A DNA stretch of 64,000 nucleotides. Origin: Minisyncoccota bacterium (GTDB taxonomy: Bacteria; Patescibacteriota; Minisyncoccia; SW-4-49-11). The stretch spans positions 31,264-95,263 of the forward strand of contig JAULZW010000005.1 of assembly GCA_032117235.1 (NCBI GenBank), written 5' to 3'. Made by a program: the position numbers and the translations under genes. Below are positions 2,674-23,235 of the stretch, one piece after another. Under the pieces are notes generated by a model, which had not been told where the DNA came from, did no database searches, and saw nothing but the letters and a program-made list of their open reading frames with translations. Position 1 is the first letter of the stretch; each line of letters starts with the position of its first letter.

Positions 2674-4506
2674 CTAAATTCCACTTATTACTTTATTGAT
2701 ACCAAAATCCTCAGGTTTATCATTGTCTTTTAGGTTCTGAATAGTGCTTGAAATTTTCTCAATTAGAGGTACTATGGTCTCAATTTCAGCTTCGGGAGTG
2801 TTCTTGAGTCTAGATATTTCTTCTCGGATTGGTAACTCTAATATGTCATTGGTCTCAACTTGGGTATCTTTTTTAGCTAATTCAGTAGCTTCTTTATGGA
2901 AGGTGAGCATAGCTTTTAGCATCAAATACATTTTGCGAGTGGAGGCAAAAGCATCAATTTCATCGAAGGCATTTTGTTGTAAATAATCTTCTCTTAGGCC
3001 ACGGGCAGTGTCTAGTAGAATTTTCTCCGAAGTGGAGAGTGCATCCATACCAACTAATTTAATAATATCATCAAGTTCATTTTCTTTTTGTAGAATTTGC
3101 ATAGCTAAGTCTCGTAATTCTTTCCAATCGGCATCGGTTTTATTTATAAAATATTCTTCCACATTTTCCTTATAAAGACTGTAACTATTAAGCCAATGAA
3201 TAGATGGGAAATGTTTTTTAGCAGCAAGAGAGGCATCTAATCCCCAAAAAGCTTTGGTCACTTTGAGGGTAGCTTGGCTAACAGGTTCGGATAAATCTCC
3301 TCCTGGAGGCGATACAGCTGCAATAATGGTGGCTGACCCAGTTCTTCCCTCAGAACCAAGAGTTGTCACAATACCCGCTCTTTCATAAAAAGCTGAAATT
3401 CGAGATCCAAGATAAGCAGGATATCCTTCTTCTCCGGGCATTTCTTCTAATCTTCCTGACATTTCACGCATAGCTTCAGCCCAACGAGAGGTAGAATCGG
3501 CCATCATAGCCACATTATATCCCATATCTCGATAATATTCAGCAAGAGTAATACCTGTATATACAGAGGCTTCACGAGCGGCAATTGGCATATTGGATGT
3601 ATTGGCTACAAGAATTGTTCTTTCCATCAATGGTCGGCCTGAATTTGGATCTTTAAGATGTGGGAATTCTACTAATACATCGGTAATCTCATTTCCTCTC
3701 TCTCCGCAGCCAACATAAACCACAACATCGGCATCTGACCATTTTGCCAATTGATGCTGAATAACTGTCTTTCCAGCTCCGAATGGTCCTGGTACGGCAG
3801 CCGCTCCTCCTTTGGGAATTGGGAAAAAGGTATCTATAATTCTCTGCTGGGTAATAAGTGGAGTAGTGGGGATTTGTTTAGCTTTGTATGGTCTTGGAGT
3901 TCGAACTGGCCATTTATGCATCAATTGTACAGATGTGTCTCCAATCTTAGCTACTGTCTCGGTAACAGTGAATTCTCCTGCTTTAATCTCAGTGATTGTT
4001 CCCTCAACTCCAAAAGGCACTAGAATTTTATGAGTGATTAGCTCAGTTTCTTGTACTGTTCCTAGTATATCTCCAGCTTGAACTTGAGCGCCTTTTTGTA
4101 CTGATGGCTTAAACTCCCATTTTATCTCTCTATCCAAACTAGGAGCTGTTAAACCTTTTGTTATATATTCAGAATTGAGACCTTGGGCAGCTGTTTTCTC
4201 GGCAATTACATTGAGTGGTCTTAAAATTCCATCAAATAATCCAGCAGTCAAAAGTCCTGGGCCTAACTCTATACTAAGGGGCTCTCCAGTAGAAACAACT
4301 GGTTCTCCAACTACCAATCCAGAAGTGTCTTCATAGACTTGAATAGAGGCGGTATTGCCTTTGAGTTCAATAATTTCTCCCATTAATTCTAAGTTTCCAA
4401 CTCTGACCAAATCATACATTTTAGCTCCAATCATAGAGTCAGCTATAACTAAGGGTCCTGAGATTTTGATAATAGTTCCGGTATTCATAGTCATTATTTT
4501 AATCAA
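2674..4506 (-). CDS. atpA: A/V-type ATP synthase catalytic subunit A
   Basis: 610 aa. Walker A GPFGAGKT. Conserved V1-A blocks [15 protein letters not shown] and [11 protein letters not shown]. Confidence 0.92.
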
Positions 4507-6879: not shown

Positions 6880-8916
6880 TTATTCAATAACACTATAATC
6901 TTGAGATCGAGAAACCTCCTGTAAGGGTCTTCCTCCAGATTGGAAGAATTTACTAAAGAATTCTACAAAGTGCAATCTACCTACATTGATATAAGTACCT
7001 AAGACATTCAGAGCAATATTAAATATATTTCCTGCTACAAAAATAACAATCATAATAATATATCCAATAACAATCCAAGCACCACCTTTTTCTACTAATC
7101 CGCTACCAGCTAGGTTTGCTAAGGTTCCTACTACTCCAGCAATAATTCCAGTTGCAAGACCTAGAGCAACTAACCTAGTATAAGATAGTATATCTGACAA
7201 ATATCCTACTACTCCAAAAAATACATCATAGGCTCCTTTACCAAACTTAGCAAATATAGACTTCATATCTCTACCCAAAAGATATATCATTGTAAATACA
7301 TAGCCAATATATATATATATCAGAGGATCAATGAGTAATTGAAGTCCATTTCCTAATAATCCAAAATTAATAAGCAATAATAATATTCCAAAGATCAAAG
7401 CTAAAGCCCAAAGAATAGAATCTAGACTAGCATCCCAGAATGACTTTTGATTGAATGCTTGTACAATGTTGAGAGATAACCCAAATAAAAGATGAATAAC
7501 TCCAAGTACAATAGTGAATCCCATCAAAGTAATTACACTGTCCATAGGATTGATAACTTGTAATTGCTGCAAGAAAGGAATTAGTCCAATACTAATTAAG
7601 AATTTCATATGAGGTGACGCTGTAGCAGGGTCAATTGCATCTGGAGTAATTCCAAACCAACTACCAAATAAAGCTCCTACAATCAAAGTAGAGATAGAAG
7701 CAATAAACACTACTGCAAAAATATCTCTTACACCTGATTTTAATCTAGAATTTAATAATCCAAGCCCAGTCAAAATAATTAGAATCAGCGCATATCCAGC
7801 CTCAGATAAAGCTAATCCGAACATAAAGGTGAAGAATATAGCAATAGATAAAGTCGGATCAATTTTGCCAGCCTGCGGATAACCCATAATTTTTGTTACA
7901 GTTTCAAAATGTCTTACAATAGGCAAGTTTTTGAATATAACTGGAGTGTCTTCAGATACAGATGGTAATTCTACAATTTTAATATCATTTGAAATGTCTA
8001 AAATATCTTTTTTATATAAATTAAACTTTTCTTCATCTACCCATAACTTTATAGAAGAATTTGTTTCAGATTCTGGATTAAAAGAATGTAAATAAGAAAT
8101 CAAATTTAGTTGAGAATTTAATACATCTGCTAAAATAGCCAAATCCTTGAGCTGAATAGGGGATTTTTTGAGCTCAAGATTTATTTTATTGATGATTTTG
8201 GCATTAACACTAAATTCTTGTTTACTTTTATGATAAATATCATAAAAAGATCCTGTAACTTCAGCTGGAAATTGAATGAAGGTAGCTTGATTTTGAATTA
8301 TATCTAGTCCAATTTTAACCTGATTTTTTGAAACGGCTAAAATATAAACATAATCAGTCCCAATTTTTTTAACAGACTCCAATACAATAGGAGATAAACT
8401 TTGCTCCAACTGCTCTACTAAATAATGGGCTCTAGATTCATCAACTAAAAATGGTAAAAATTTAATATAAGAATAGGGTTTAAAAATATTAAGTTCGATG
8501 TCTTTTAGAGGTTCTGATTTAGCAATAATATCTTGTAAAACTTCTTGTCTAGTTGTTAAATCATCTTTCAGTCCAGCTTTTTCTACAATCTCTTGAGCTT
8601 TTTTGATAATTTCTCCTTGCTCTGTATTATAATGTTCAAAAATGTCTTCAGTGATTAAAAATCTATCATCTAACACAGCTGAGAACATGGATTTTTTAAC
8701 AGTATGATACCCTTTGTATATATCCAAAGATTTATTTACTATATCTAGATTTTCTAATAGATCCTCTTGTTTATGTAAATAATTTTTAGCTAAAGGAGTT
8801 CTTTCTAGTTTTTCTATAATTTCTCCAACTTGACGCTTTTGAATATAAGCTAATAAGTTTAATTGAGTATTGTTTGGAACAGTGATTTGAATTAGTTTAG
8901 ACGCTTTAACTCCCAT
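6880..8916 (-). CDS. atpI: A/V-type ATP synthase subunit I (a-subunit, membrane)
   Basis: 678 aa with a soluble N-terminal half and a polytopic C-terminal half. Position between the atpH-like gene and K. Confidence 0.8.
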   Translation of the reverse strand: MGVKASKLIQITVPNNTQLNLLAYIQKRQVGEIIEKLERTPLAKNYLHKQEDLLENLDIVNKSLDIYKGYHTVKKSMFSAVLDDRFLITEDIFEHYNTEQGEIIKKAQEIVEKAGLKDDLTTRQEVLQDIIAKSEPLKDIELNIFKPYSYIKFLPFLVDESRAHYLVEQLEQSLSPIVLESVKKIGTDYVYILAVSKNQVKIGLDIIQNQATFIQFPAEVTGSFYDIYHKSKQEFSVNAKIINKINLELKKSPIQLKDLAILADVLNSQLNLISYLHSFNPESETNSSIKLWVDEEKFNLYKKDILDISNDIKIVELPSVSEDTPVIFKNLPIVRHFETVTKIMGYPQAGKIDPTLSIAIFFTFMFGLALSEAGYALILIILTGLGLLNSRLKSGVRDIFAVVFIASISTLIVGALFGSWFGITPDAIDPATASPHMKFLISIGLIPFLQQLQVINPMDSVITLMGFTIVLGVIHLLFGLSLNIVQAFNQKSFWDASLDSILWALALIFGILLLLINFGLLGNGLQLLIDPLIYIYIGYVFTMIYLLGRDMKSIFAKFGKGAYDVFFGVVGYLSDILSYTRLVALGLATGIIAGVVGTLANLAGSGLVEKGGAWIVIGYIIMIVIFVAGNIFNIALNVLGTYINVGRLHFVEFFSKFFQSGGRPLQEVSRSQDYSVIE

Positions 8917-9216: not shown

Positions 9217-9473
9217 ACATATTTATAATTACAATTCATTATAGTCTAGAGAATTTTATTTGTCAATGATTTGTATGGGATTGGAGTGGGTTTAGAGGGT
9301 TTAGCTCCCAGCTTACAGGATTATTAATAATATATTCTTGAATTTTTAGTAAATCAGTATCATTACAAAAATACACTTCATATTATCTACACACACTGTA
9401 ACAAAATACCAATAACCTCCAAGATATAATTCTTTTGACAATCTTTTTATTTGCCTTTTCATAAAAAATATCC

Positions 9474-10928
9474 CTACACAAAGAATTTTTTACGAATTAT
9501 TTCATCTTGTTCTCTTTGCTTATCTTCAATTAAATTGATGGCCTTTATTTTCAAGTCTTTGAGGTCCTGTACGGCTAATATTTGAGCTTGTGATTTGAGA
9601 TAGTTGGGATTATTTTTACTTGGGTTCTCTAATATTTCGGCTAATAAAACATTTAGAATCATACCTATCATAGGTCCTGCTGGGATTTTTAATTCCTTAA
9701 TTAAAGTATTTCCATCTATTTTGAGCATAGATAAATCTATTGGGTCTAATAAAACTTTTTCTGTCATATATTCAAAATGCCGTAGGCGATAGGGGCGAGC
9801 CTTAGGAGTTCCAGAACCAATACGGTCACATTCTCTTAGCTTAATCAAGTCCTTGATATTCTCAACTCCTACATTACGGATAAGCTTACGAATAGAGGAT
9901 TCAGTCACTTCATTGGTATCATAATAAAACATATGATAACGCACTAATTTTGAAATTCGGGCTGCAAATTTTTTAGGATAATGAAGTCTATTGAGAATTT
10001 CATAAGCCATACTAGCGCCTACAACTTCATGATTATGAAAAGTACAGGTTTTCCCTACGCCTTCTTTAGTACGAGGTTTTGCAATATCATGTAATAGTCC
10101 AGCCATTCTCAAATCAAAGCTCCAAGACATATCACAAGCATGTTGCATAGTCCTCAAAAGATGTTCCCAAACATCATAAATATGATGTCCATTTTGTTCT
10201 ACTCCTATACCTTCTAATAATTCGGGCATTATGAAAGGTAATAAATGAGTATCTCTTAGTAATATATAGCCATTCATTGCTCGCGGGGTTAGCATCATTT
10301 TGGTGAGCTCATCTCGAATTCGCTCCTGCGCAATATGCTCGAGATTAGGAGCTAAATCTTGAATAGCTTGCAAGGTTTTAGGCTCAATGGTGAAATCTAA
10401 TTGCACTGCAAATCTCACAGCTCGCATTAGTCTCAAGGCATCTTCCCCAAATCTATCTTTTGGCTCACCCACAGTACGAATAATACCTTTTTCTAAGTCA
10501 GATAAACCTTCAAAGAAATCTTGTATTTCTAATTTAGCATTCATCGCCAGAGTATTAACAGTAAAATCTCGGCGAGCAAGGTCAAGAGAGAGTTCAGAGA
10601 CGAATTCAATTTGTTCAGGATGCCTCTTATCGGTATATTGAGATTCTTTGCGATAAGTGGTAACTTCAATAATCTCTGTCGTATCATCCGGACGGCGATA
10701 CTTGACCCCTACAGTTCCAAAACTATTCTCATAAACAGAGTCAGGAAATAATTCTTGAATTTGATTCGGAAGAGCATTAGTAGTAATATCCCAATCTACG
10801 GGATTTGAACCTCTCACAAGATCACGAACACTACCTCCAACAATAAAAGCTTCATATCCAGCTTGTTCGAGTGTATTCAATATTAAAATAATATGATTAG
10901 GTATAGAATAAGACATAATTTTTTTCAT
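9474..10928 (-). CDS. cca: CCA-adding tRNA nucleotidyltransferase with HD domain
   Basis: Class II polymerase-beta motif GGSVRDLVRGSNPVDWDITT and an HD motif LLHDIAKP. The start is set at the internal MKKIMSYS because the longer ORF would overlap the tRNA gene. Confidence 0.85.
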   Translation of the reverse strand: MKKIMSYSIPNHIILILNTLEQAGYEAFIVGGSVRDLVRGSNPVDWDITTNALPNQIQELFPDSVYENSFGTVGVKYRRPDDTTEIIEVTTYRKESQYTDKRHPEQIEFVSELSLDLARRDFTVNTLAMNAKLEIQDFFEGLSDLEKGIIRTVGEPKDRFGEDALRLMRAVRFAVQLDFTIEPKTLQAIQDLAPNLEHIAQERIRDELTKMMLTPRAMNGYILLRDTHLLPFIMPELLEGIGVEQNGHHIYDVWEHLLRTMQHACDMSWSFDLRMAGLLHDIAKPRTKEGVGKTCTFHNHEVVGASMAYEILNRLHYPKKFAARISKLVRYHMFYYDTNEVTESSIRKLIRNVGVENIKDLIKLRECDRIGSGTPKARPYRLRHFEYMTEKVLLDPIDLSMLKIDGNTLIKELKIPAGPMIGMILNVLLAEILENPSKNNPNYLKSQAQILAVQDLKDLKIKAINLIEDKQREQDEIIRKKFFV

Positions 10929-10936
10929 ATAAATAA

Positions 10937-11014
10937 TGGAGCCAATGGTGGGGATCGAACCCACGACCTATGCGTTACGAATGCATTGCTCTACCAGAAC
11001 TAAGCTACATTGGC
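10937..11014 (-). tRNA. tRNA-Thr (anticodon CGU), CCA encoded
   Basis: The reverse complement folds into a cloverleaf with a 7-bp acceptor stem GCCAATG/CATTGGC, T-loop TTCGATC and anticodon loop TTCGTAA with U33 and A37. One A-C mismatch closes the anticodon stem. The 3' end is TCCA. Confidence 0.88.
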
Positions 11015-11067
11015 ATAAGCATAGTATAGTCTAAAATGGCTGTAAGAGCAATACCAGAAAGAAAAAA

Positions 11068-11087
11068 CCCCACTTAGCTAAGTGGGG
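11068..11087 (-). terminator. rho-independent terminator-like hairpin (minus-strand transcript)
   Basis: ccccactt-agct-aagtgggg is a perfect 8-bp stem. The minus strand follows it with a UUUUUUCUUUC run. Confidence 0.5.
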
Positions 11088-11394
11088 TGGAGTGTTGGGA
11101 TCTGATTAAGTTGCATAAAGCTCGAGGGAGTATTATTGTTAAAACATCTCTGTTGGCTCGACCCTTGCACCGAATAGATATTTGTCTAATCGTATTTGGA
11201 ACTATTTTTCTGTGTCGTTCAGGTATTTTGTGTCGGCTTAATAGTATTGCATTAGTATAAACTCTCGTTTTGTTTAATCCTTTCAATCTAGAAAATGATT
11301 TTTCTGTATTTATATTTAATCCCTCTAAGATAATGATGATATTTCTCCATTCTTCTACAGACAGAACCCAAGTCTCCATCAGAAAATTCCTCAA
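11074..11394 (-). CDS. questionable 106-aa basic ORF (possibly non-coding)
   Basis: The ORF ends inside the terminator hairpin and has no recognisable domain. It lies in a long non-coding-looking spacer. Confidence 0.15.
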   Translation of the reverse strand: MRNFLMETWVLSVEEWRNIIIILEGLNINTEKSFSRLKGLNKTRVYTNAILLSRHKIPERHRKIVPNTIRQISIRCKGRANRDVLTIILPRALCNLIRSQHSTPLS

Positions 11395-11441
11395 GTGAAA
11401 GTAGTATATAAAATATCAAATTCTATTATTATTGTCAAATT

Positions 11442-11680
11442 GGGGACGGAGCTAAATTCCCCTCTTGAGGGGTGGACAGCTTTGCTGGACGGGGTGGAAA
11501 AGAAAATATTTATACATAACATAAAAATACTCCACCCCGTATCCCCGCTGTAAACATATCAGGGATACACCCCTCAAGAGGGGAGTTGAAAGCCAGAAAA
11601 GTAAAAGCCCTACGAAAACTATGTCGGCGGGTCGCCGACTCTACGAATAATGGAGGGGTAAACCCTCCGCTACGAAAAAG
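11442..11680. ncRNA. candidate structured RNA of unknown class (GC-rich, nested long-range helices)
   Basis: The span is about 50% GC against a 30% GC genome. Three sets of pairings are visible. (1) Outer pairing 11457-11475 (ttcccctcttgaggggtg) with 11568-11585 (cacccctcaagaggggag). (2) Inner pairing 11487-11499 (ggacggggtggaa) with 11541-11555 (ctccaccccgtatcc). (3) Hairpins gtcggcg-ggt-cgccgac and ggaggg-gtaaa-ccctcc, separated by three CUACGAA repeats. Confidence 0.35.
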
Positions 11681-11683
11681 AAA

Positions 11684-11717
11684 AAAGCCCCGCTGAGTGC
11701 AGGGCTTGGTGAGAAAC
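11684..11717 (-). terminator. rho-independent terminator of the 11723..12166 gene
   Basis: Hairpin aagccc-cgctgagtgca-gggctt. The minus strand follows it with UUUUUUCUUUUUC. Confidence 0.5.
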
Positions 11718-11722
11718 GAGAG

Positions 11723-12166
11723 TCAGGAGAGAAACTCGTACTGAGTGACGATGCCCCAGTGAATCGTTGCCATTAAAGGTGGCAACATATAATTCTTATC
11801 CTGATAGGCTTGAGCCCATAACAAAATAATGGGCTTCAATTCTTGCTCCTGTTCAGTCAGGAACCAGAACTTTGCCTCAGTCTCCTCGACTGTTTCTAGC
11901 AAGGTAATTGCTATAAATATCTGAACCACACTCCCATACTTTTTGGATTCCTCCAAGATCTCAGGGAGTAGAGCTTCTACTCCAGCTACCAATTTCTTTA
12001 GAGGGAATTGTCGGGAGCTGAGATCCGTCGGGATGGGAGGGGGAGCAACCTCAGCCTCAGGAATTTCGCCTGGTTTCATCTCTGCCAAACTCTGAATATT
12101 GTCCAGAGTTTGGGGGAAGAGTGAACGAATGCGTTCAAGGATTCGGAAGGGGGTGAGGGAGGGCAT
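11723..12166 (-). CDS. hypothetical protein encoded in a GC-rich island
   Basis: 147-aa ORF at about 48% GC with CGG/GGG/CCC-type codons that are rare elsewhere in the window. No recognisable motif. Confidence 0.45.
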   Translation of the reverse strand: MPSLTPFRILERIRSLFPQTLDNIQSLAEMKPGEIPEAEVAPPPIPTDLSSRQFPLKKLVAGVEALLPEILEESKKYGSVVQIFIAITLLETVEETEAKFWFLTEQEQELKPIILLWAQAYQDKNYMLPPLMATIHWGIVTQYEFLS

Positions 12167-12240
12167 AAGCCAAACCTTGTGAAATGAACAAAAATAATCA
12201 TATCACAAAACCACCAAAATGTCAATAGGTGTAGGTAGTT

Positions 12241-13659
12241 TTATTTTGTCTTGATAATCACACTTTTCCCGTCTTTATCCTGGATAATGTAGCCTGATTT
12301 AGATAATTCTTGTCTTAATTTGTCAGCTTGGTCAAAGTCTTTATTGGCTCTAGCTTGATTGCGATTATTGAAAATAAGCATTATATCAGCGGGGATTGAG
12401 GTTTTGGTGAGGGGTAAATTGAGAGCCAGAACTCGCTCTAATCTTTGGAATAATTTGATTATATGGCGTCTTGGTATGGGGTCTCCAGCATCTATTGAGC
12501 TATTGATTTCTTTGATAAAATCAAACATAAAGGCAATGGCCTTGGGGGAGTCAAGATCAGAGAAAAGAGATTTTTTGAAATTATTATAGGTATCTCGGAT
12601 CAGCTTTTGTAGCTTTAGGTTTTTGCGATGTGGCTTGATAGTATTCACTCTATTGATAAAATCTATTATCCGCTGGCGGGTTTGTTTGGCTTGAGTTAGG
12701 GAGTCCCAAGAAAAATCTATATCAGAGCGATAATGTGCCATTAAAACTAATAATCTCAAGTCTAGTGGAGAATAGTCTTTATCAACAATATCATCTAGGG
12801 TGATAAAAGTTCCCGCTGATTTGGACATTTTGGCGGTATTGACGGTGAGAAAATAACTGTGCAGCCAATAATGTGCCATTGGCTTACCAGTATCTGCTTT
12901 GAACTGAGCTATTTCATTGGTGTGATGAATTGGAATATGATCTTTACCTCCTGTATGTATATCAAAGGGTGCATGGAGTAGTGAGTCTGCCATTACTACA
13001 CATTCAGAATGCCAACCAGGGAAGCCAATTCCCCAAGGGCTATCCCATTCCATTTGTCTTGTCTCATCTTTAGGGGAGAATTTCCATAAAGCAAAATCTG
13101 AGGGCGATTTTTTATCTCCCATATTTACTCGAGCTCCGGCTTCCTGAGCTTTGAGATTGAGATGGGCAAAATCAGCATATTCTGGGAATTTGGTAGTATC
13201 AAAATATACTCCATCACTGATAATATAGGTATATCCTTTGCGCTCTAATCTCTTGATAAGATTAATTTGCTCTTTTATATATTCAGTTGCTTTCGGGTAA
13301 TGGTCTGAAGAAAGAATATTCAGTTTTTCTAAATCTTCTTGCCAAAGTTTGGTGTATTTCTCGGCGATTTCTAATGCTGTGAGATTTTCTCTTTTGGCTC
13401 CTTTTTCTAATTTATCCTCTCCGGTATCCTCATCACTAACCAGATGGCCAACATCTGTAATATTAGTAACTGAATAAATAGTATAGCCATGTAATTGCAG
13501 AGTTCTTTTGAGTAAATCATCAAATAAACTTTTTCGTAAATTTCCAATATGCTGTCTATCATATACGGTTGGTCCACAACTATATAGGGACACTCTTTTT
13601 AGGTGTATGGATTTGAAAGGGACTATTGCCTTGGCTGGGGTATTATATAGTTTTATCAT
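12241..13659 (-). CDS. cysS: cysteinyl-tRNA synthetase
   Basis: Class I aaRS with a HIGN (HIGH) motif at the N-terminus and a KMSKS motif (TAKMSKSAGT). Length 472 aa. Confidence 0.9.
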   Translation of the reverse strand: MIKLYNTPAKAIVPFKSIHLKRVSLYSCGPTVYDRQHIGNLRKSLFDDLLKRTLQLHGYTIYSVTNITDVGHLVSDEDTGEDKLEKGAKRENLTALEIAEKYTKLWQEDLEKLNILSSDHYPKATEYIKEQINLIKRLERKGYTYIISDGVYFDTTKFPEYADFAHLNLKAQEAGARVNMGDKKSPSDFALWKFSPKDETRQMEWDSPWGIGFPGWHSECVVMADSLLHAPFDIHTGGKDHIPIHHTNEIAQFKADTGKPMAHYWLHSYFLTVNTAKMSKSAGTFITLDDIVDKDYSPLDLRLLVLMAHYRSDIDFSWDSLTQAKQTRQRIIDFINRVNTIKPHRKNLKLQKLIRDTYNNFKKSLFSDLDSPKAIAFMFDFIKEINSSIDAGDPIPRRHIIKLFQRLERVLALNLPLTKTSIPADIMLIFNNRNQARANKDFDQADKLRQELSKSGYIIQDKDGKSVIIKTK

Positions 13660-13665
13660 ATAATA

Positions 13666-15309
13666 TTATTGAAGAGGATTAGAGGTTGATTTATTGGGTG
13701 GTCGATAAGTTGAATAAAAAGCGTCTCTTTTTATCATATTTTCTCCCTCATAAATTTCACGATAGGCTACGGTTTTCATAGATCCGTCTGGGCTTGATTC
13801 TAACACGACGGGCTCAATAGTTTTGGCGGTTTTGCCAGTTGAGGTTCCATAAATTTCATAATACAGAATAGTCCCTACAATATAATGTTGAATCAAAATA
13901 TGATGATTTGTATCATTTTGGAATTTAAAGTCAGGTTTTGGTAAGTAGATTGTAGCATCAAGCCCAGGTTTTCCATAATAATTTACAACATAAGAATGGT
14001 TTCTCCTCTCAATAATTGGTAATCCAGCATTTAGAGCGGCTCTAAATAGAGTAGTTGAAACTTGGCAAATACCTCCTCCATATTCGGGTATGGTTTTATT
14101 GCCTTTAATTACTAACTCAGGTAAATATCCATTACGGGCATCTACTTTACCCAAGGTATTTACAAAAGAGAACTCCTCTCCAGGTTTCAAAAGAGTGCTA
14201 GAAATTTTATTAGCAGCTACATTTATATTTTTAACCCTACTTTTGCTTGATCCTCTAAAGTTAGACTCTCCTTTTCCCAATAGTATTTTAAGACCTAGTG
14301 CATCGAATTGGGATTCATCAATCAGGGGAGAGGTGACCGCTACGAATAATTCTGTTTTTGCTTTTCCATCTAAAATATCATTTTTAATTCTTTTAGAACT
14401 TTCTTCCATCATTAACTTAGCCCCTTCTTTTCCAGGCTCTAAAATTTGAATTTGTTGAGTGTCAGGATTGAATCTTAATTTTGCATTCACAGGTTGGCTA
14501 GTCAGAGTTTTTTGCACTGATTCTAAATATTCTTTGACTGTATCTTGAGAGATGTCAATTTTTTTGGTTGTCTGATCAATAGTAATCCAAGTAACAATTT
14601 CTTCAGGAGGGATAGTGATATTAGTTTTATTAAAAAATATTTCATGTTCTACTATCAAGGCTTCTAAATCTGATTTTTGAGCTTCCCAAGAAGCAGTTGT
14701 AATGCTAGGGATCTCTTTTTTAAGTGGGACTTCTAATTTTATTTCCTCATCTTTCATCTTAGCAGTAATAGCTGGAGTTATTTTTTCGACATCTAATCTT
14801 TCTCCAACCTGTTCTGGAATAATAATAACTTCACCTTCTTTATAATCTAATTTAGCATTAGCAAGAGTTTTTAGAGCTGGATTTATTTTAGCACCGAGTG
14901 CAGATTCCAAGACTTCAGGATCACTTGTATATAGCCAATTTATATCGGTATTTTGAAATAGGTGGCTTAAAATAGCAAGAATATTGTTTTTTCTCTTAAC
15001 TCTATAAGCTTGTACTAAAGTTTCATCAGTATTGAGTTTTATGCCCAACTCTTCTAATGTAGTAGTATATTCTTGATTTTCATAAGTGAGTATAATATTT
15101 TTAACACTTAGATTTTTATTCTTTTCATCCAATATGTCGAAGGCTTCCTTTAAGCTTTTAGAACTAATATCAAGCCCTTGCACTGCAACATTAGGATAAA
15201 CTGACTCACGATAAGCAAAAGAAAACCATCCAGCTATAATGGACAATATTAAGAATATAGAAGTTATAATGATTAATGGTAGCTTAACTTTTTGCCAAAA
15301 TAATTTCAT
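13666..15309 (-). CDS. VanW-domain membrane-anchored protein (YoaR-like)
   Basis: N-terminal TM helix. C-terminal VanW-like block GGGICQVSTTLFRAALNAGLPIIERRNHS. Confidence 0.7.
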   Translation of the reverse strand: MKLFWQKVKLPLIIITSIFLILSIIAGWFSFAYRESVYPNVAVQGLDISSKSLKEAFDILDEKNKNLSVKNIILTYENQEYTTTLEELGIKLNTDETLVQAYRVKRKNNILAILSHLFQNTDINWLYTSDPEVLESALGAKINPALKTLANAKLDYKEGEVIIIPEQVGERLDVEKITPAITAKMKDEEIKLEVPLKKEIPSITTASWEAQKSDLEALIVEHEIFFNKTNITIPPEEIVTWITIDQTTKKIDISQDTVKEYLESVQKTLTSQPVNAKLRFNPDTQQIQILEPGKEGAKLMMEESSKRIKNDILDGKAKTELFVAVTSPLIDESQFDALGLKILLGKGESNFRGSSKSRVKNINVAANKISSTLLKPGEEFSFVNTLGKVDARNGYLPELVIKGNKTIPEYGGGICQVSTTLFRAALNAGLPIIERRNHSYVVNYYGKPGLDATIYLPKPDFKFQNDTNHHILIQHYIVGTILYYEIYGTSTGKTAKTIEPVVLESSPDGSMKTVAYREIYEGENMIKRDAFYSTYRPPNKSTSNPLQ

Positions 15310-15387
15310 ATATAATATATATATTTATTAGTATATTTTACTACAGCTTAATTATATTATCAAATAAATTTGTTAATTATTATATTA

Positions 15388-16389
15388 TCAAATTGACTTA
15401 CCTCTTATTTTACGAAATATATTATATAAATTAAAAATAAATCTTTTATGAATAAAAATTTGGCTACTTGGGTAATCAATAGTCTTTCCTCCAAACTGCA
15501 TTTTGAATTTTGAGATTCCCTGCCAAGATTTTTTTGTAGTAGATACTCCCCAAAAGTCATAGATTTTTTTACCAAGATTTTTAGCTTCCAAAATAGATTG
15601 CCATTGAAGAAGTGGTGGAGCCATTAGGTTGCGATATTGATTGCTAGAAGCTCCATGTAAATAAATTCTTTGATCCAAGGTATCCAAGATGATATTGGTG
15701 GCTAAAACATTATCTTCATACTCAGCTATAATTAAAGATACTTCAATCTCATCTAAATCATTTTTTAATATATTTTTGTAATGTTTCTTGGAATGAATAG
15801 CAAATTTCCCTCTTTGGCTGGTATCTTTCATTAAATTAAAGAATATATCAAAGTATTTATTAAATTCAGGATGTTTGTTGGGTATGGTTTTAATTTCAAC
15901 GCCTTTTTTTTGAGCTAATTTAATATTATATCTCATTTTAGAATGCATATTTTTTAATAAATCATTTTCTGATAGATTTAAATCTAATATTTGAGTTTGA
16001 TGGGGTAGTCTTTCTAATTCACTAGGTTGGGTATATTTCTTAAAAATCTGACTATAATCATGATATATATCTTGAGCTGGCTCAATTAAAGTAAATATTG
16101 CATTATACTTTTGGGCTATTTCTTTCATATTATCCCAAAATTCTTGAATTATCTCTTGAGATATATTTGTTGAGTATAAAATCGGCCCTCTCGGTATATG
16201 TAATTGAGTGTATTTTGAAATTAAATTATAAACATAAACTTGAGCAAAGATTACAGTATGACCATCTTTATTATTTATAACAACTCTTTCTACGGCAAGA
16301 TAATCTTTGCTAATTAATTCTGCCCAATCTAATAGTTGATAGTACTCGGATATATTGTTTGCGAATTTCTGATCAGCTGATAATATCAT
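15388..16389 (-). CDS. FemAB-family peptidoglycan bridge aminoacyltransferase
   Basis: FemA/FemX-like blocks RYNIKLAQKKGVE and LHGASSNQYRNLMAPPLLQW. The start is set at the internal MILSADQ, which overlaps the upstream gene by ATGA. Confidence 0.65.
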   Translation of the reverse strand: MILSADQKFANNISEYYQLLDWAELISKDYLAVERVVINNKDGHTVIFAQVYVYNLISKYTQLHIPRGPILYSTNISQEIIQEFWDNMKEIAQKYNAIFTLIEPAQDIYHDYSQIFKKYTQPSELERLPHQTQILDLNLSENDLLKNMHSKMRYNIKLAQKKGVEIKTIPNKHPEFNKYFDIFFNLMKDTSQRGKFAIHSKKHYKNILKNDLDEIEVSLIIAEYEDNVLATNIILDTLDQRIYLHGASSNQYRNLMAPPLLQWQSILEAKNLGKKIYDFWGVSTTKKSWQGISKFKMQFGGKTIDYPSSQIFIHKRFIFNLYNIFRKIRGKSI

Positions 16390-22120: not shown

Positions 22121-23235
22121 AAATAGCGGTGCACGGCTCTCATTTGTGTCAAGAAAGAGAGGATGGGAATCAGACTTACATTTTGAACTTATTTAGAGCA
22201 ATCCGAGAGATTGATACTGAAAATAAGTATACTTTTTATTATAATAAACCCAATGCTAAAATAGTAGAGGCATCTAATTTTGAGCATAAGGTACATAAAT
22301 CTTATTTTATGTGGACCCAGAGGGTATTTCCATTTTTATTACGTCAAGATAAGCCAGATGTGCTTTTTATGCCAATTCAAATGTTACCTTTTTTGAAGTC
22401 AAGAAGACAAAAATCCGTGGTTACAATTCATGATTTAGCCTTTCTTTTGTATCCTGAAACTTTTCCAGCTAAAGATGCTTTTTTGCATAAACTTTATGTC
22501 AGAGAGGCTATTATTAAGGCTGACCATTTAATTGCTATTACTGAGGCTACTAAACAAGATATCATCCGATTTTATAATGTGGACCCAGGGAAAATTACAG
22601 TTGTATATCACGGGGTGGATAAAAACAGATTTAGATTAATACAGGAGGGTGAAGATATTTTAGTTAATAATGTTAAAAATAAATATAATATTAGCAAGCC
22701 ATATATTTTGTATATTGGAAATGTGCAACCTCGTAAAAATATTCAAGGTTTGATTAAGGCTTATCAGAAGCTCAGAAATACCAAAGACCATAATTATCAA
22801 TTAGTTATAGCTGGAGCTAAGGCTTGGTTGGTAGAAGATGTAATGAAAGAAATAGGGGATGAGTATAGGGATGATATAATCTTTACAGGGAGGTTTGAAG
22901 ATTCAGAATTATCTCCACTTTTATGGGGAGCAGATTTATTTGTATTACCTAGCTTTTATGAAGGTTTTGGTCTGCCAGTTTTAGAAGCTATGGCTTGTGG
23001 AGTACCTACTTTAGTTTCAAATACTCCAAGTTTAGTTGAGGTTGGTGGGAATGCATCTCTTGCCTTTGACCCACACAATGTTGACGATATGGCAAAAGTA
23101 TTAGACAATATAATAAGTGATCCTAATTTAAGGCAAGAAATGAGAATAAAGGGATTAAAAAGAGCAAGAGAATTTTCTTGGATTCGTTGTGCTCAGGAGA
23201 CTGTAAATGTAATTCAAAAAATCAATTTATTATGA
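22117..23235 (+). CDS. glycosyltransferase family 1 (GT4-like, GT-B fold)
   Basis: EX7E-type motif EGFGLPVLEAMACGVPTLVSN. Confidence 0.8.
   Translation: MKIAVHGSHLCQEREDGNQTYILNLFRAIREIDTENKYTFYYNKPNAKIVEASNFEHKVHKSYFMWTQRVFPFLLRQDKPDVLFMPIQMLPFLKSRRQKSVVTIHDLAFLLYPETFPAKDAFLHKLYVREAIIKADHLIAITEATKQDIIRFYNVDPGKITVVYHGVDKNRFRLIQEGEDILVNNVKNKYNISKPYILYIGNVQPRKNIQGLIKAYQKLRNTKDHNYQLVIAGAKAWLVEDVMKEIGDEYRDDIIFTGRFEDSELSPLLWGADLFVLPSFYEGFGLPVLEAMACGVPTLVSNTPSLVEVGGNASLAFDPHNVDDMAKVLDNIISDPNLRQEMRIKGLKRAREFSWIRCAQETVNVIQKINLL

Follow-up and report, generated by a model that had tools for sequence, protein, structure and literature searches.

What kind of element is the GC-rich, strongly folding block at positions 11442–11680 of the DNA considered here? 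The window, that is, the whole stretch analysed, comprises 64,000 nucleotides of a Minisyncoccota bacterium (GenBank assembly GCA_032117235.1, contig JAULZW010000005.1, positions 31,264 to 95,263). The original prediction saw in this block a structural RNA gene of open class and named, as a fallback, an inverted-repeat relic of a mobile element. The RNA gene is not borne out: there is no Rfam match, copies occur as dispersed repeats, the covariation is of the Watson–Crick kind and the block is absent in a close relative. The fallback comes close to what the evidence shows. The element is probably a non-coding inverted doublet of a dispersed palindromic DNA repeat of Patescibacteria, class Paceibacteria. 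[quoted passage not shown]

The block and its two arms

The self-complementarity of the block was largely described correctly. The outer pair joins 11455–11474 with 11568–11587 (20 nt, 95% complementary), as had been claimed. The inner pair joins 11489–11498 with 11531–11540 and is complementary at 10 of 10 positions; this pairing exists, but its 3' arm lies at 11530–11544 and not at 11541–11555, where it had been placed about 11 nt too high. The two tight hairpins were found as well (GTCGGCG-GGT-CGCCGAC at 11623–11639 and GGAGGG-GTAAA-CCCTCC at 11652–11668), together with the three copies of CTACGAA at 11610, 11641 and 11670; just two further copies of the heptamer occur on both strands of the window. 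The claim of high GC content also holds, with 0.45–0.52 in the block vs approximately 0.3–0.4 around it. When 11436–11720 is folded as RNA, the energy is −111.2 kcal/mol on the plus strand (z = −7.1) and −114.8 kcal/mol on the minus strand (z = −7.0), and none of 200 shuffles reaches the native energy. Folded as DNA, the doublet (11456–11586, 131 nt) gives −37.1 kcal/mol (z = −8.8). It is overlapped by phantom open reading frames (ORFs) of 41–52 codons alone, in agreement with the description of the region as non-coding and strongly self-complementary.

Each outer arm is a palindrome by itself, CCCCTC TT GAGGGG and CCCCTC AA GAGGGG, and the long-range helix therefore represents two inverted copies of one repeat unit pairing with each other. 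The equal folding of both strands and the palindromic outer arms were the first signs of an inverted DNA repeat. The doublet and the ORF that runs into it are composed as follows:

11456–11499, minus strand: arm 1 of the doublet (R1 covariance model, 64.3 bits, E = 5e-20)
11500–11529, no strand: AT-rich spacer of 30 nt, seen in the sequence, with TATAAAT and an ATG on the minus strand
11530–11586, plus strand: arm 2 of the doublet, inverted relative to arm 1 (R1 model, 43.9 bits, E = 5e-13)
11391–11522, minus strand: phantom ORF of 43 codons from the ORF list, which begins in the spacer and reads through arm 1

Arm 1 is the canonical unit, in which a CGTC tag is followed by a short variable hairpin, then by a CCA tail and a terminal palindrome; on the minus strand it reads TTCCACCCCGTC-CAGC AAA GCTG-TCCA-CCCCTCAAGAGGGG-AAT. 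Arm 2 is the same unit but with a long variable hairpin (TATCCCCG...CAGGGATA), in which compensatory changes are seen in L006b and L061 (loci used for comparison are given as L numbers). The TCCACC ends of both arms face the spacer, which is conserved within this doublet subtype, being found also in L004, L016, L006a and L006b and partly in L061. The 43-codon ORF reads arm 1 as ...STPSSKAVHPSRGE..., the commonest frame at the N-termini of DUF559 proteins, and it is probably a relic or by-product and not a gene. The R1 model matched exactly two arms in the window and nothing else, once a weak match at 22594–22620 (minus strand; 13.6 bits, E = 0.011) is set aside. This match covers the ATCCACCCCG...AAT ends alone and is probably due to chance.

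Known RNA classes offer no place for the block. An Rfam 15 scan of the whole window at the gathering threshold returned tRNA-Thr only, and a scan of 11000–11800 at E ≤ 10 returned noise only, with at most 19.8 bits vs gathering scores of 35–80; the one match inside the doublet was MIR1507 at 13.5 bits. ARAGORN found no transfer-messenger RNA (tmRNA). RNase P RNA and tmRNA, which had already been discarded in the original prediction, are ruled out by these scans, as are signal recognition particle (SRP) RNA, 6S RNA, riboswitches and large non-coding RNAs. A T-box or leader RNA for cysS is ruled out because the element lies downstream of minus-strand genes and not upstream. A retron, a clustered regularly interspaced short palindromic repeat (CRISPR) array and an integron attC site were dropped, since no reverse transcriptase, array or integrase is found nearby. 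The adjoining ORF of 147 amino acids (aa) cannot be a piece of a large RNA, as it has 27 protein homologues at 52–95% identity.

The arm family and the intergenic landing pad

The unit that recurs in other genomes, among them Paceibacteria/Parcubacteria MAGs, is TCCACC-CCGTC-[hairpin of any sequence]-CCA-CCCCTCAAGAGGGG-AAT, a palindromic unit of approximately 45 bases with a variable hairpin (stem of 3–7 bp, loop of 3–5 nt, longer in some copies) between conserved blocks. A 21-mer from the element matched sixteen contigs of species-representative genomes. The ten relevant contigs are all metagenome-assembled genomes (MAGs) of the candidate phyla radiation (CPR), and three contigs of JBIKVS01, two of JBIKWJ01 and two of CAZYEN01 carry it with unrelated flanks. 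Matches in Lachnospiraceae, Thiobacillus and Rhodocyclaceae are coding, show no other arm features and were rejected as chance or unrelated. Most contigs matched by the 21-mer have the 44-nt half unit only, TTCCACCCCGTCCAGCAAAGCTGTCCACCCCTCAAGAGGGGAAT, with unrelated sequence on both sides. The 44-mer of arm 1 is found, identical and with unrelated flanks, in L011, L012, L013, L018, L019, L020, L022 and L025. A 24-mer that joins spacer and arm has no match in the genome collection, and even L004 differs from it by one base. A 20-mer from the terminal part of the arm matched at least 120 metagenome contigs. The phage and plasmid collections contain no arm match; the sole viral match of the 20-mer is a 4-kb contig classed as viral (L026, IMG/VR UViG_3300028588_000709), with two arms at 3772–3809 and 3931–3968.

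The variable hairpin is the most informative part of the arm. The 145 arms collected have 76 distinct variable segments, which with few exceptions form short hairpins. The covariance model R1, used in place of an nhmmer arm profile that missed most variant arms, was built from an alignment of 70 distinct arms, all from contigs other than the window. All seven pairs of the variable hairpin change on both sides in this alignment. Compensatory cells number 127 vs 48 ± 5 in shuffles (0 of 500 shuffles reach 127), and the covariation score is 0.264 vs 0.03–0.06 when the partner columns are slid. The four inner pairs comprise 202 Watson–Crick, 2 G-U and 16 other combinations. Such near-pure Watson–Crick pairing points to a DNA palindrome that pairs on both strands, since G-U pairs should be much more frequent in an RNA under selection. 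The CGTC tag precedes the hairpin in 50 of the 70 arms (the rest have CGGC or CGCC), and CCA follows it in 62.

The arrangement of the arms was counted with R1 on 73 sources containing 144 arms. Thirty-three doublets are oriented as in the window, with spacers of 0–44 nt; five doublets have the opposite polarity and two close pairs are tandem. The inverted doublet is the preferred arrangement (33 of 40 close pairs). Five more window-type pairs enclose 396–679 nt, three of them around a DUF559 gene. Doublets end with ATT...AAT, often AATT...AATT, and most combine one CCCCTC..GAGGGG arm with one CTCCTC..GAGGAG arm. Because the terminal palindromes are perfect singly and mismatched between arms, it is the local hairpins that are conserved and not the long-range helix. 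The outer helix of 20 bp is likewise not a conserved feature, as the second terminal palindrome is missing or replaced in L006a, L006b and L061. Covariation had been proposed as a check on the RNA reading; it is strong in the variable hairpin, but almost purely Watson–Crick there.

Intergenic arms show no orientation bias, with 28 co-oriented with both neighbours and 27 anti-oriented. Another 41 arms lie inside ORFs of at least 120 aa, where a strong frame preference is seen (..ATPQEGN.. in 27 of 41). They occur in a restriction-modification methyltransferase (L022), in another ORF (L025) and in the repeated C-terminal domain of L080, L081, L056 and L123. In this domain, single in-frame arms (IPPRLTSSATPQEGN) occupy the same position (L080 3689–3732 and 6569–6612, L081 4022–4065, L056 465–508, L123 6657–6702), and the domain resembles a sorting domain of the type IX secretion system (T9SS) (..VFGKK, arm, LRIDVSGLP..). 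The arm appears to have been fixed within the domain and then copied along with it. Tandem arrays were also observed. In L124 (6521–6960), a tandem row of six or seven arm-like units runs along one strand, for the most part with a 70-nt period and with one step of 114 nt; the units share one inter-unit sequence (..GGGCGACTTTTAAGAAA..), which looks like tandem amplification and not like a CRISPR array. L035 has three tandem copies of a 576-nt unit (1611, 2187, 2763) beside an arm doublet.

Relatives of the locus itself were gathered through homologues of the 147-aa protein. The edges of the block are defined by three features:

12166–11723, minus strand: gene of the conserved 147-aa protein (27 homologues)
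11675–11707, minus strand: intrinsic terminator of the 147-aa gene (stem 11707–11685 and T-run; terminator scan), the upstream edge of the block
11410–11438, minus strand: promoter-like site of the next small ORF, which bounds the block on its downstream side (TTGACA-17-TATTTT, including a TG; 10 of 12 matches in the promoter scan)

The window locus is syntenic with L016 (MAG JBIKWJ01, Candidatus Paceibacteria), which places the window in a Paceibacteria (Patescibacteria/CPR) genome, and the element is found at the same position in L004, L016 and L006/L007 at 98% identity. L006 contains a second copy, 90% identical, approximately 790 nt away. The terminator is kept in all syntenic loci, including those without the repeat block. 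In L002 and L003, whose neighbouring protein is 86% identical, the block of 245 nt is absent and 62 nt of other small palindromes sit between the same terminator and promoter; homology with these two loci resumes at the promoter-like site. The block fills a hypervariable intergenic "landing pad" between the terminator of the 147-aa gene and the next promoter. A doublet of the window subtype (87% identity, with the long hairpin and a related spacer) is also found at a non-syntenic site, between a CofD-like gene and typA in L061. Several independent assemblies stop inside the element or just before it, as is expected of repeats; L001, which is 100% identical to the window, stops at 11469. Taken together, the almost purely Watson–Crick covariation, the lack of orientation bias, the absence of the block in a close relative and the related doublet at a non-syntenic site argue for a DNA-level repeat similar to MITEs or REPINs.

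DUF559 genes and known repeat systems

An association between the arms and DUF559 genes was shown. In L013, two arms enclose an ORF of 149 aa that is a DUF559 protein (Pfam E = 4.8e-20; PDB 3hrl E = 1.6e-8). Nine arm-selected loci have a DUF559 gene at most approximately 130 nt from an arm (tblastn); these genes are 53–69% identical to one another, and in five of the loci (L013, L068, L079, L082, L127) arms stand on both sides of the gene. Of three loci found by the protein alone, two have arms at both ends of the DUF559 domain and the third has arms 440–570 nt upstream. Their contexts are unrelated, namely adk-map, after rpoD, and beside a type ISP restriction system and an insertion sequence (IS). 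An arm-encoded peptide precedes the domain in 92 of the 120 best DUF559 cluster representatives (HPSRGE in 50, SPLEGW in 28, TPQEG in 14), and the DUF559 ORF of L082 begins in the spacer of an arm doublet. In L079, L068 and L128, an hsdS gene is split by an arm-DUF559-arm cassette. The cassette (L079 923–1509, L068 1857–2407, and L128) sits in the linker of a type I hsdS-like gene (...AIFKEWFVDFRFP, cassette, MQDSELGPIPKGW...); the N-terminal half continues in frame into the DUF559 ORF, and the second half has a new ATG start right after the last arm. DUF559 has been grouped with Vsr and the group I intron homing endonuclease I-Bth0305I (PMC3424549). The association suggests that DUF559 is the nuclease that mobilises the arms, a link between palindromic repeats and DUF559 for which the searchable literature contains no report.

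The spread of the family could then be pictured as follows. Arms would move as DNA, via single strands that form hairpins or cruciforms or via break-induced copying, and a DUF559 nuclease encoded elsewhere in the genome might act in trans, as RAYTs, the REP-associated tyrosine transposases, are thought to act on REPINs. The window copy would be a cargo-less passenger, either mobilised as a doublet or left after loss of the DUF559 gene. Any effect on the host would be secondary; read-through transcripts might gain additional hairpins, for instance, or the two genes might be insulated from each other.

Several observations weigh against this account. The window has no DUF559 gene (tblastn with a CPR DUF559 query), and the arms flank DUF559 in several polarities, unlike the terminal inverted repeats of a simple transposon. 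DUF559 is not known to move DNA. Neither a clean empty site nor a duplication of the target site turned up, and L002 has other repeats at the position. The copy number looks low: the 64 kb contain a single doublet, and one MAG has at least three arms. Many variable hairpins have TTCG or TACG loops in one orientation, which hints at some selection at the RNA level. The arms were gathered by exact match to a 20-mer, so the terminal palindrome was unable to vary in the set. Finally, identity among the orthologous copies of the window, L004, L016 and L006a reaches 98%, vs 78–82% for the flanking coding DNA, which could mean functional constraint at this locus; gene conversion or transfer could also account for such identity.

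Beside the doublet, the block contains small hairpins of another kind:

11652–11676, minus strand: REP-like module a, TTCGTAG-C-GGAGGGTTTACCCCTCC, a hairpin that recurs in L004, L012 and L019
11623–11647, minus strand: REP-like module b, TTCGTAG-A-GTCGGCGACCCGCCGAC, a hairpin with copies in L004 and L103
11596–11616, minus strand: truncated REP-like module c, TTCGTAG-GGCTTTTAC..., with full-length copies elsewhere

On the minus strand, the three CTACGAA copies are the TTCGTAG heads of these small palindromes. L004 has at least one more copy of module b at 93–96% identity, and module c occurs at full length, TTCGTAG-GGCTTTTGTCCCTCCTATTA..., in L006, L012 and L019. Four TTCGTAG-headed modules recur in close relatives: TTCGTAG-CGGAGGGTTTAYCCCTCC, TTCGTAG-AGTCGGCGACCYCGCCGAC, TTCGTAG-GGCTTTTGTCCCTCC... 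and TTCGTAG-GGGCGACC..GTCGCC. The heptamer shows no overall enrichment (82 sites vs approximately 122 expected in 1 Mb) and matters only as the head of these four palindromes. A GTAG head followed by a palindrome is the classical REP signature (PMC3733652). Judged by this signature, the CTACGAA hairpins are a second, REP-like repeat family beside the arm doublet.

The closest comparison for the doublet is the REPIN-RAYT system, in which REP doublets that form hairpins are associated with tyrosine transposases (PMC3337134). As in that system, short palindromic units preferentially form inverted pairs around a short spacer, single units occur as well, and the repeats flank the gene of a small DNA-cleaving enzyme. 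The enzyme, however, is a PD-(D/E)XK nuclease and not an HUH/Y1 transposase. The arm has CGTC in place of the GTAG head that the three small hairpins do have, and it is longer and composite, with two conserved blocks, a hairpin of free sequence and a second palindrome. Its copy number appears low, and arms are often part of the ORF of the enzyme. RAYT (PF01797) does not appear in the gene tables of the annotated loci, although no search aimed at RAYT was made.

Di Nocera et al. 2013 (PMC3733652) divide REPs into two super-families, one tagged with GTAG and one with CGTC. In a CGTC-tagged REP, the stem-loop lies between a CGTC tag and a CCA tail, and the super-family includes RPE-4 and RPE-6, two Rickettsia palindromic elements (RPEs), and dRS3 of Neisseria. 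Such REPs also occur inside genes, and the class "apparently lacks a dedicated transposase" (PMC3733652). The arm shares the tag and the tail (50 and 62 of 70 arms), the inverted dimers and the in-frame occurrence in genes. It differs in its stems, which are 3–7 bp of free sequence vs 8–9 bp starting with AT (loop of 4–5 nt), in its dimers, whose tags point inward (33 of 40 close pairs) vs mostly outward, and in the extra invariant palindrome CCCCTCAAGAGGGG; moreover, Patescibacteria are not among the reported phyla. Because stem length, composition, dimer polarity and the extra palindrome differ, the element is placed outside any described family, although it is of the REP/REPIN/MITE kind.

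MITEs (PMC10969869) are similar to the doublet in that it is small and non-coding with terminal inverted repeats (the outer 20 nt, 95%). The arms are dispersed and vary in presence among strains, and the arm-DUF559-arm cassettes, with the same ends, are candidate gene-bearing relatives. Unlike MITEs, half units with sharp boundaries are common, the candidate enzyme does not belong to the known transposases, and the arms flank its gene in varying polarity. With the RPEs, the arm shares only a behaviour, that of a palindromic repeat tolerated in frame in genes; its ORF hosts include restriction-modification genes and the C-terminal domain of secreted proteins. The arm is 44 nt long vs roughly 100–150 nt, has another sequence and occurs in another phylum. 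Bacterial interspersed mosaic elements (BIMEs) of E. coli and neisserial intergenic mosaic elements (NIMEs) resemble the window block in its mosaic of at least two repeat families between terminator and promoter and in a composition that varies between strains; however, the sequences are unrelated, and no sign of IHF- or gyrase-type binding is seen. Homing endonucleases of the Vsr fold (I-Bth0305I family; PMC3424549, PMC3239194) belong to the same PD-(D/E)XK clade as DUF559. CPR DUF559 genes are found in unrelated and even essential clusters (adk-map, after rpoD, inside hsdS), as homing genes would be, but there is no intron or intein, and the window element carries no nuclease gene. We know of no cleavage activity or target site for CPR DUF559.

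A wider idea, which we consider tentative, is that DUF559 endonucleases are the dedicated enzymes of a REP-like repeat class, an analogue of REPIN-RAYT on another nuclease fold. Three examples (CPR, N. meningitidis and E. coli) share a repeat design in which the 3' arm of a hairpin recurs downstream. In CPR, the design is CCCCTC-TT-GAGGGGTGG-[hairpin]-CGGGGTGGA, with the CGTC tag and the CCA tail. N. meningitidis has a DUF559 gene in the carA-carB intergenic region (L152) with direct repeat copies on both sides, CCGTC-CTCTCTCCC-CGT-GGGAGAGAG-TTAG-AGAGAGGG. In E. coli, CCCCTC-TGG-GGAGAGGG-TTA-GGGTGAGGGG lies approximately 170 nt downstream of the DUF559 gene ycjD, and similar CCCTCTCC..GGAGAGGG-TTGGGGTGAGG modules adjoin arms in several CPR contigs. 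Some further details were recorded at these loci. L152 has copies of a CGTC-containing palindrome (CCGTCCTCTCTCCCCGTGGGAGAGAGTTAGAGAGAGGG) at approximately 1400–1500 and 1990–2070, while N. sicca (L153) has the downstream copy of the Neisseria palindrome only. In E. coli K-12, two GC-rich palindromic modules, CCCTCTCCCTGAAAGAGCGAGGGGG and CCCCTCGCCCCTCTGGGGAGAGGGTTAGGGTGAGGGG, lie 3' of ycjD (L151, 4180–4420), and the second resembles modules beside arms in L063, L071, L131 and L132. If the idea is true, DUF559 gains a function, and the question raised in 2013 of why CGTC-tagged REPs such as the Rickettsia RPEs and Neisseria dRS3 have no known transposase is answered.

For genome analysis, GC-rich and strongly folding intergenic islands in AT-rich Patescibacteria need to be checked for repeats before they are called structural RNAs. 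The arm family breaks assemblies and pads ORF calls with inserts of 15 residues in DUF559, restriction-modification and secreted proteins. The searchable literature describes no interspersed palindromic repeats for the streamlined Patescibacteria genomes of approximately 1 Mb and contains no paper that ties such repeats to this group; searches for CPR with MITE or REPIN, and for follow-ups on CGTC REPs, returned nothing relevant. The link with DUF559 provides a concrete candidate for how REP-type repeats without a transposase spread.

Alternative readings and the surrounding genes

Four other explanations can be weighed against a dispersed DNA repeat. According to one, which we regard as unlikely, the doublet was never mobile and is the 5' leader that stayed behind when a DUF559 cassette lost its nuclease gene. 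The ATG of the spacer indeed reads through arm 1 in the HPSRGE frame found in 50 of the 120 best DUF559 proteins, the DUF559 ORF of L082 starts in just such a spacer, and three of the five same-orientation pairs that enclose 396–679 nt contain a DUF559 gene. However, 33 short doublets occur in many unrelated contexts, and the long-hairpin subtype at the non-syntenic L061 site would require independent deletions to yield the same product repeatedly; there is also no coding trace of DUF559 downstream in the window. It is rather improbable that the host has adopted the block as a functional RNA or DNA punctuation element, as proposed for REPs and BIMEs, which would stop read-through, protect the 3' end of the 147-aa mRNA or insulate the promoter. 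Its position fits such a role: an intrinsic terminator immediately precedes the block, the next −35 box follows after 17 nt, and the block is co-oriented with both genes. REPs, moreover, are common 3' of ORFs (PMC3733652). On the minus strand, the two small hairpins rate as weak terminators; the arm family includes UNCG-like loops; and the orthologous copies are more alike than the coding DNA that flanks them. Against this, L002 and L003 manage without the block, the 147-aa gene has its own strong terminator, arms throughout the family are oriented without bias towards genes, and G-U pairs hardly occur.

The reading as a stand-alone small RNA or cis-regulatory RNA of an undescribed class, from which the analysis of the locus set out, has become very improbable. 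It draws on the fold z of about −7 on both strands, the high GC content in an AT-rich genome and the strong conservation among four syntenic loci. Both strands nevertheless fold equally well, as a DNA palindrome would, and there is no Rfam match. The long-range helix is not conserved, being affected in L006a, L006b and L061 and by mismatched arm palindromes in most doublets, half units occur alone and inside ORFs, and no convincing pair of promoter and terminator surrounds the doublet on either strand. We give hardly any credence to a protein-binding DNA site, such as an operator or a nucleoid-protein site, that controls the downstream small ORF. In the window, L004 and L016, the same promoter does follow directly downstream of the doublet, but in L006a approximately 250 nt of other repeat sequence separates the two, L006b and L061 have no such ORF downstream, and the arm adjoins hundreds of unrelated genes.

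The genes around the block are all read on the minus strand:

13659–12241, minus strand: cysS, placed by the gene order at the locus
11379–11074, minus strand: small ORF of approximately 101 aa, with its own promoter-like site (11438–11410) and an AGGA ribosome-binding site
11088–11067, minus strand: second terminator, that of the small ORF
10937–11014, minus strand: tRNA-Thr gene (Rfam, ARAGORN)
9474–10964, minus strand: mechanical ORF of the CCA-adding enzyme gene, adjoining tRNA-Thr

The protein of the small ORF is 92% identical in L004 and 61% in L003; its distant counterparts in L006 and L016 show 18–23% identity, and the residues W, I, L, S, G and K are invariant. Pfam contains no match for it, and the ORF is likely to be a real, undescribed small gene. 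The 147-aa protein has no Pfam domain either. The GC content of its gene is 0.46–0.54, clearly above that of the neighbours, and one homologue is named "NifB/MoaA-like Fe-S oxidoreductase" in a JGI record, which looks like a mis-annotation. The mechanical ORF of the CCA-adding enzyme begins at a GTG inside the tRNA-Thr gene; the true start is most likely the ATG at approximately 10925 (MKKIMSYSIP...), as in L016. Identity to L004 and L016 forms a mosaic, with 89–96% on the side of the CCA-adding enzyme (9364–12244) and 81% on the cysS-VanW side (12386–15962), a pattern suggestive of inter-strain recombination whose breakpoint would lie near the repeat block. Further away, at 6880–8916 on the minus strand, an ORF of 678 aa is similar to V-type ATPase subunit I (PF01496, E = 7e-12), though to the C-terminal part of the latter alone, and is conserved with the same neighbours in L004.

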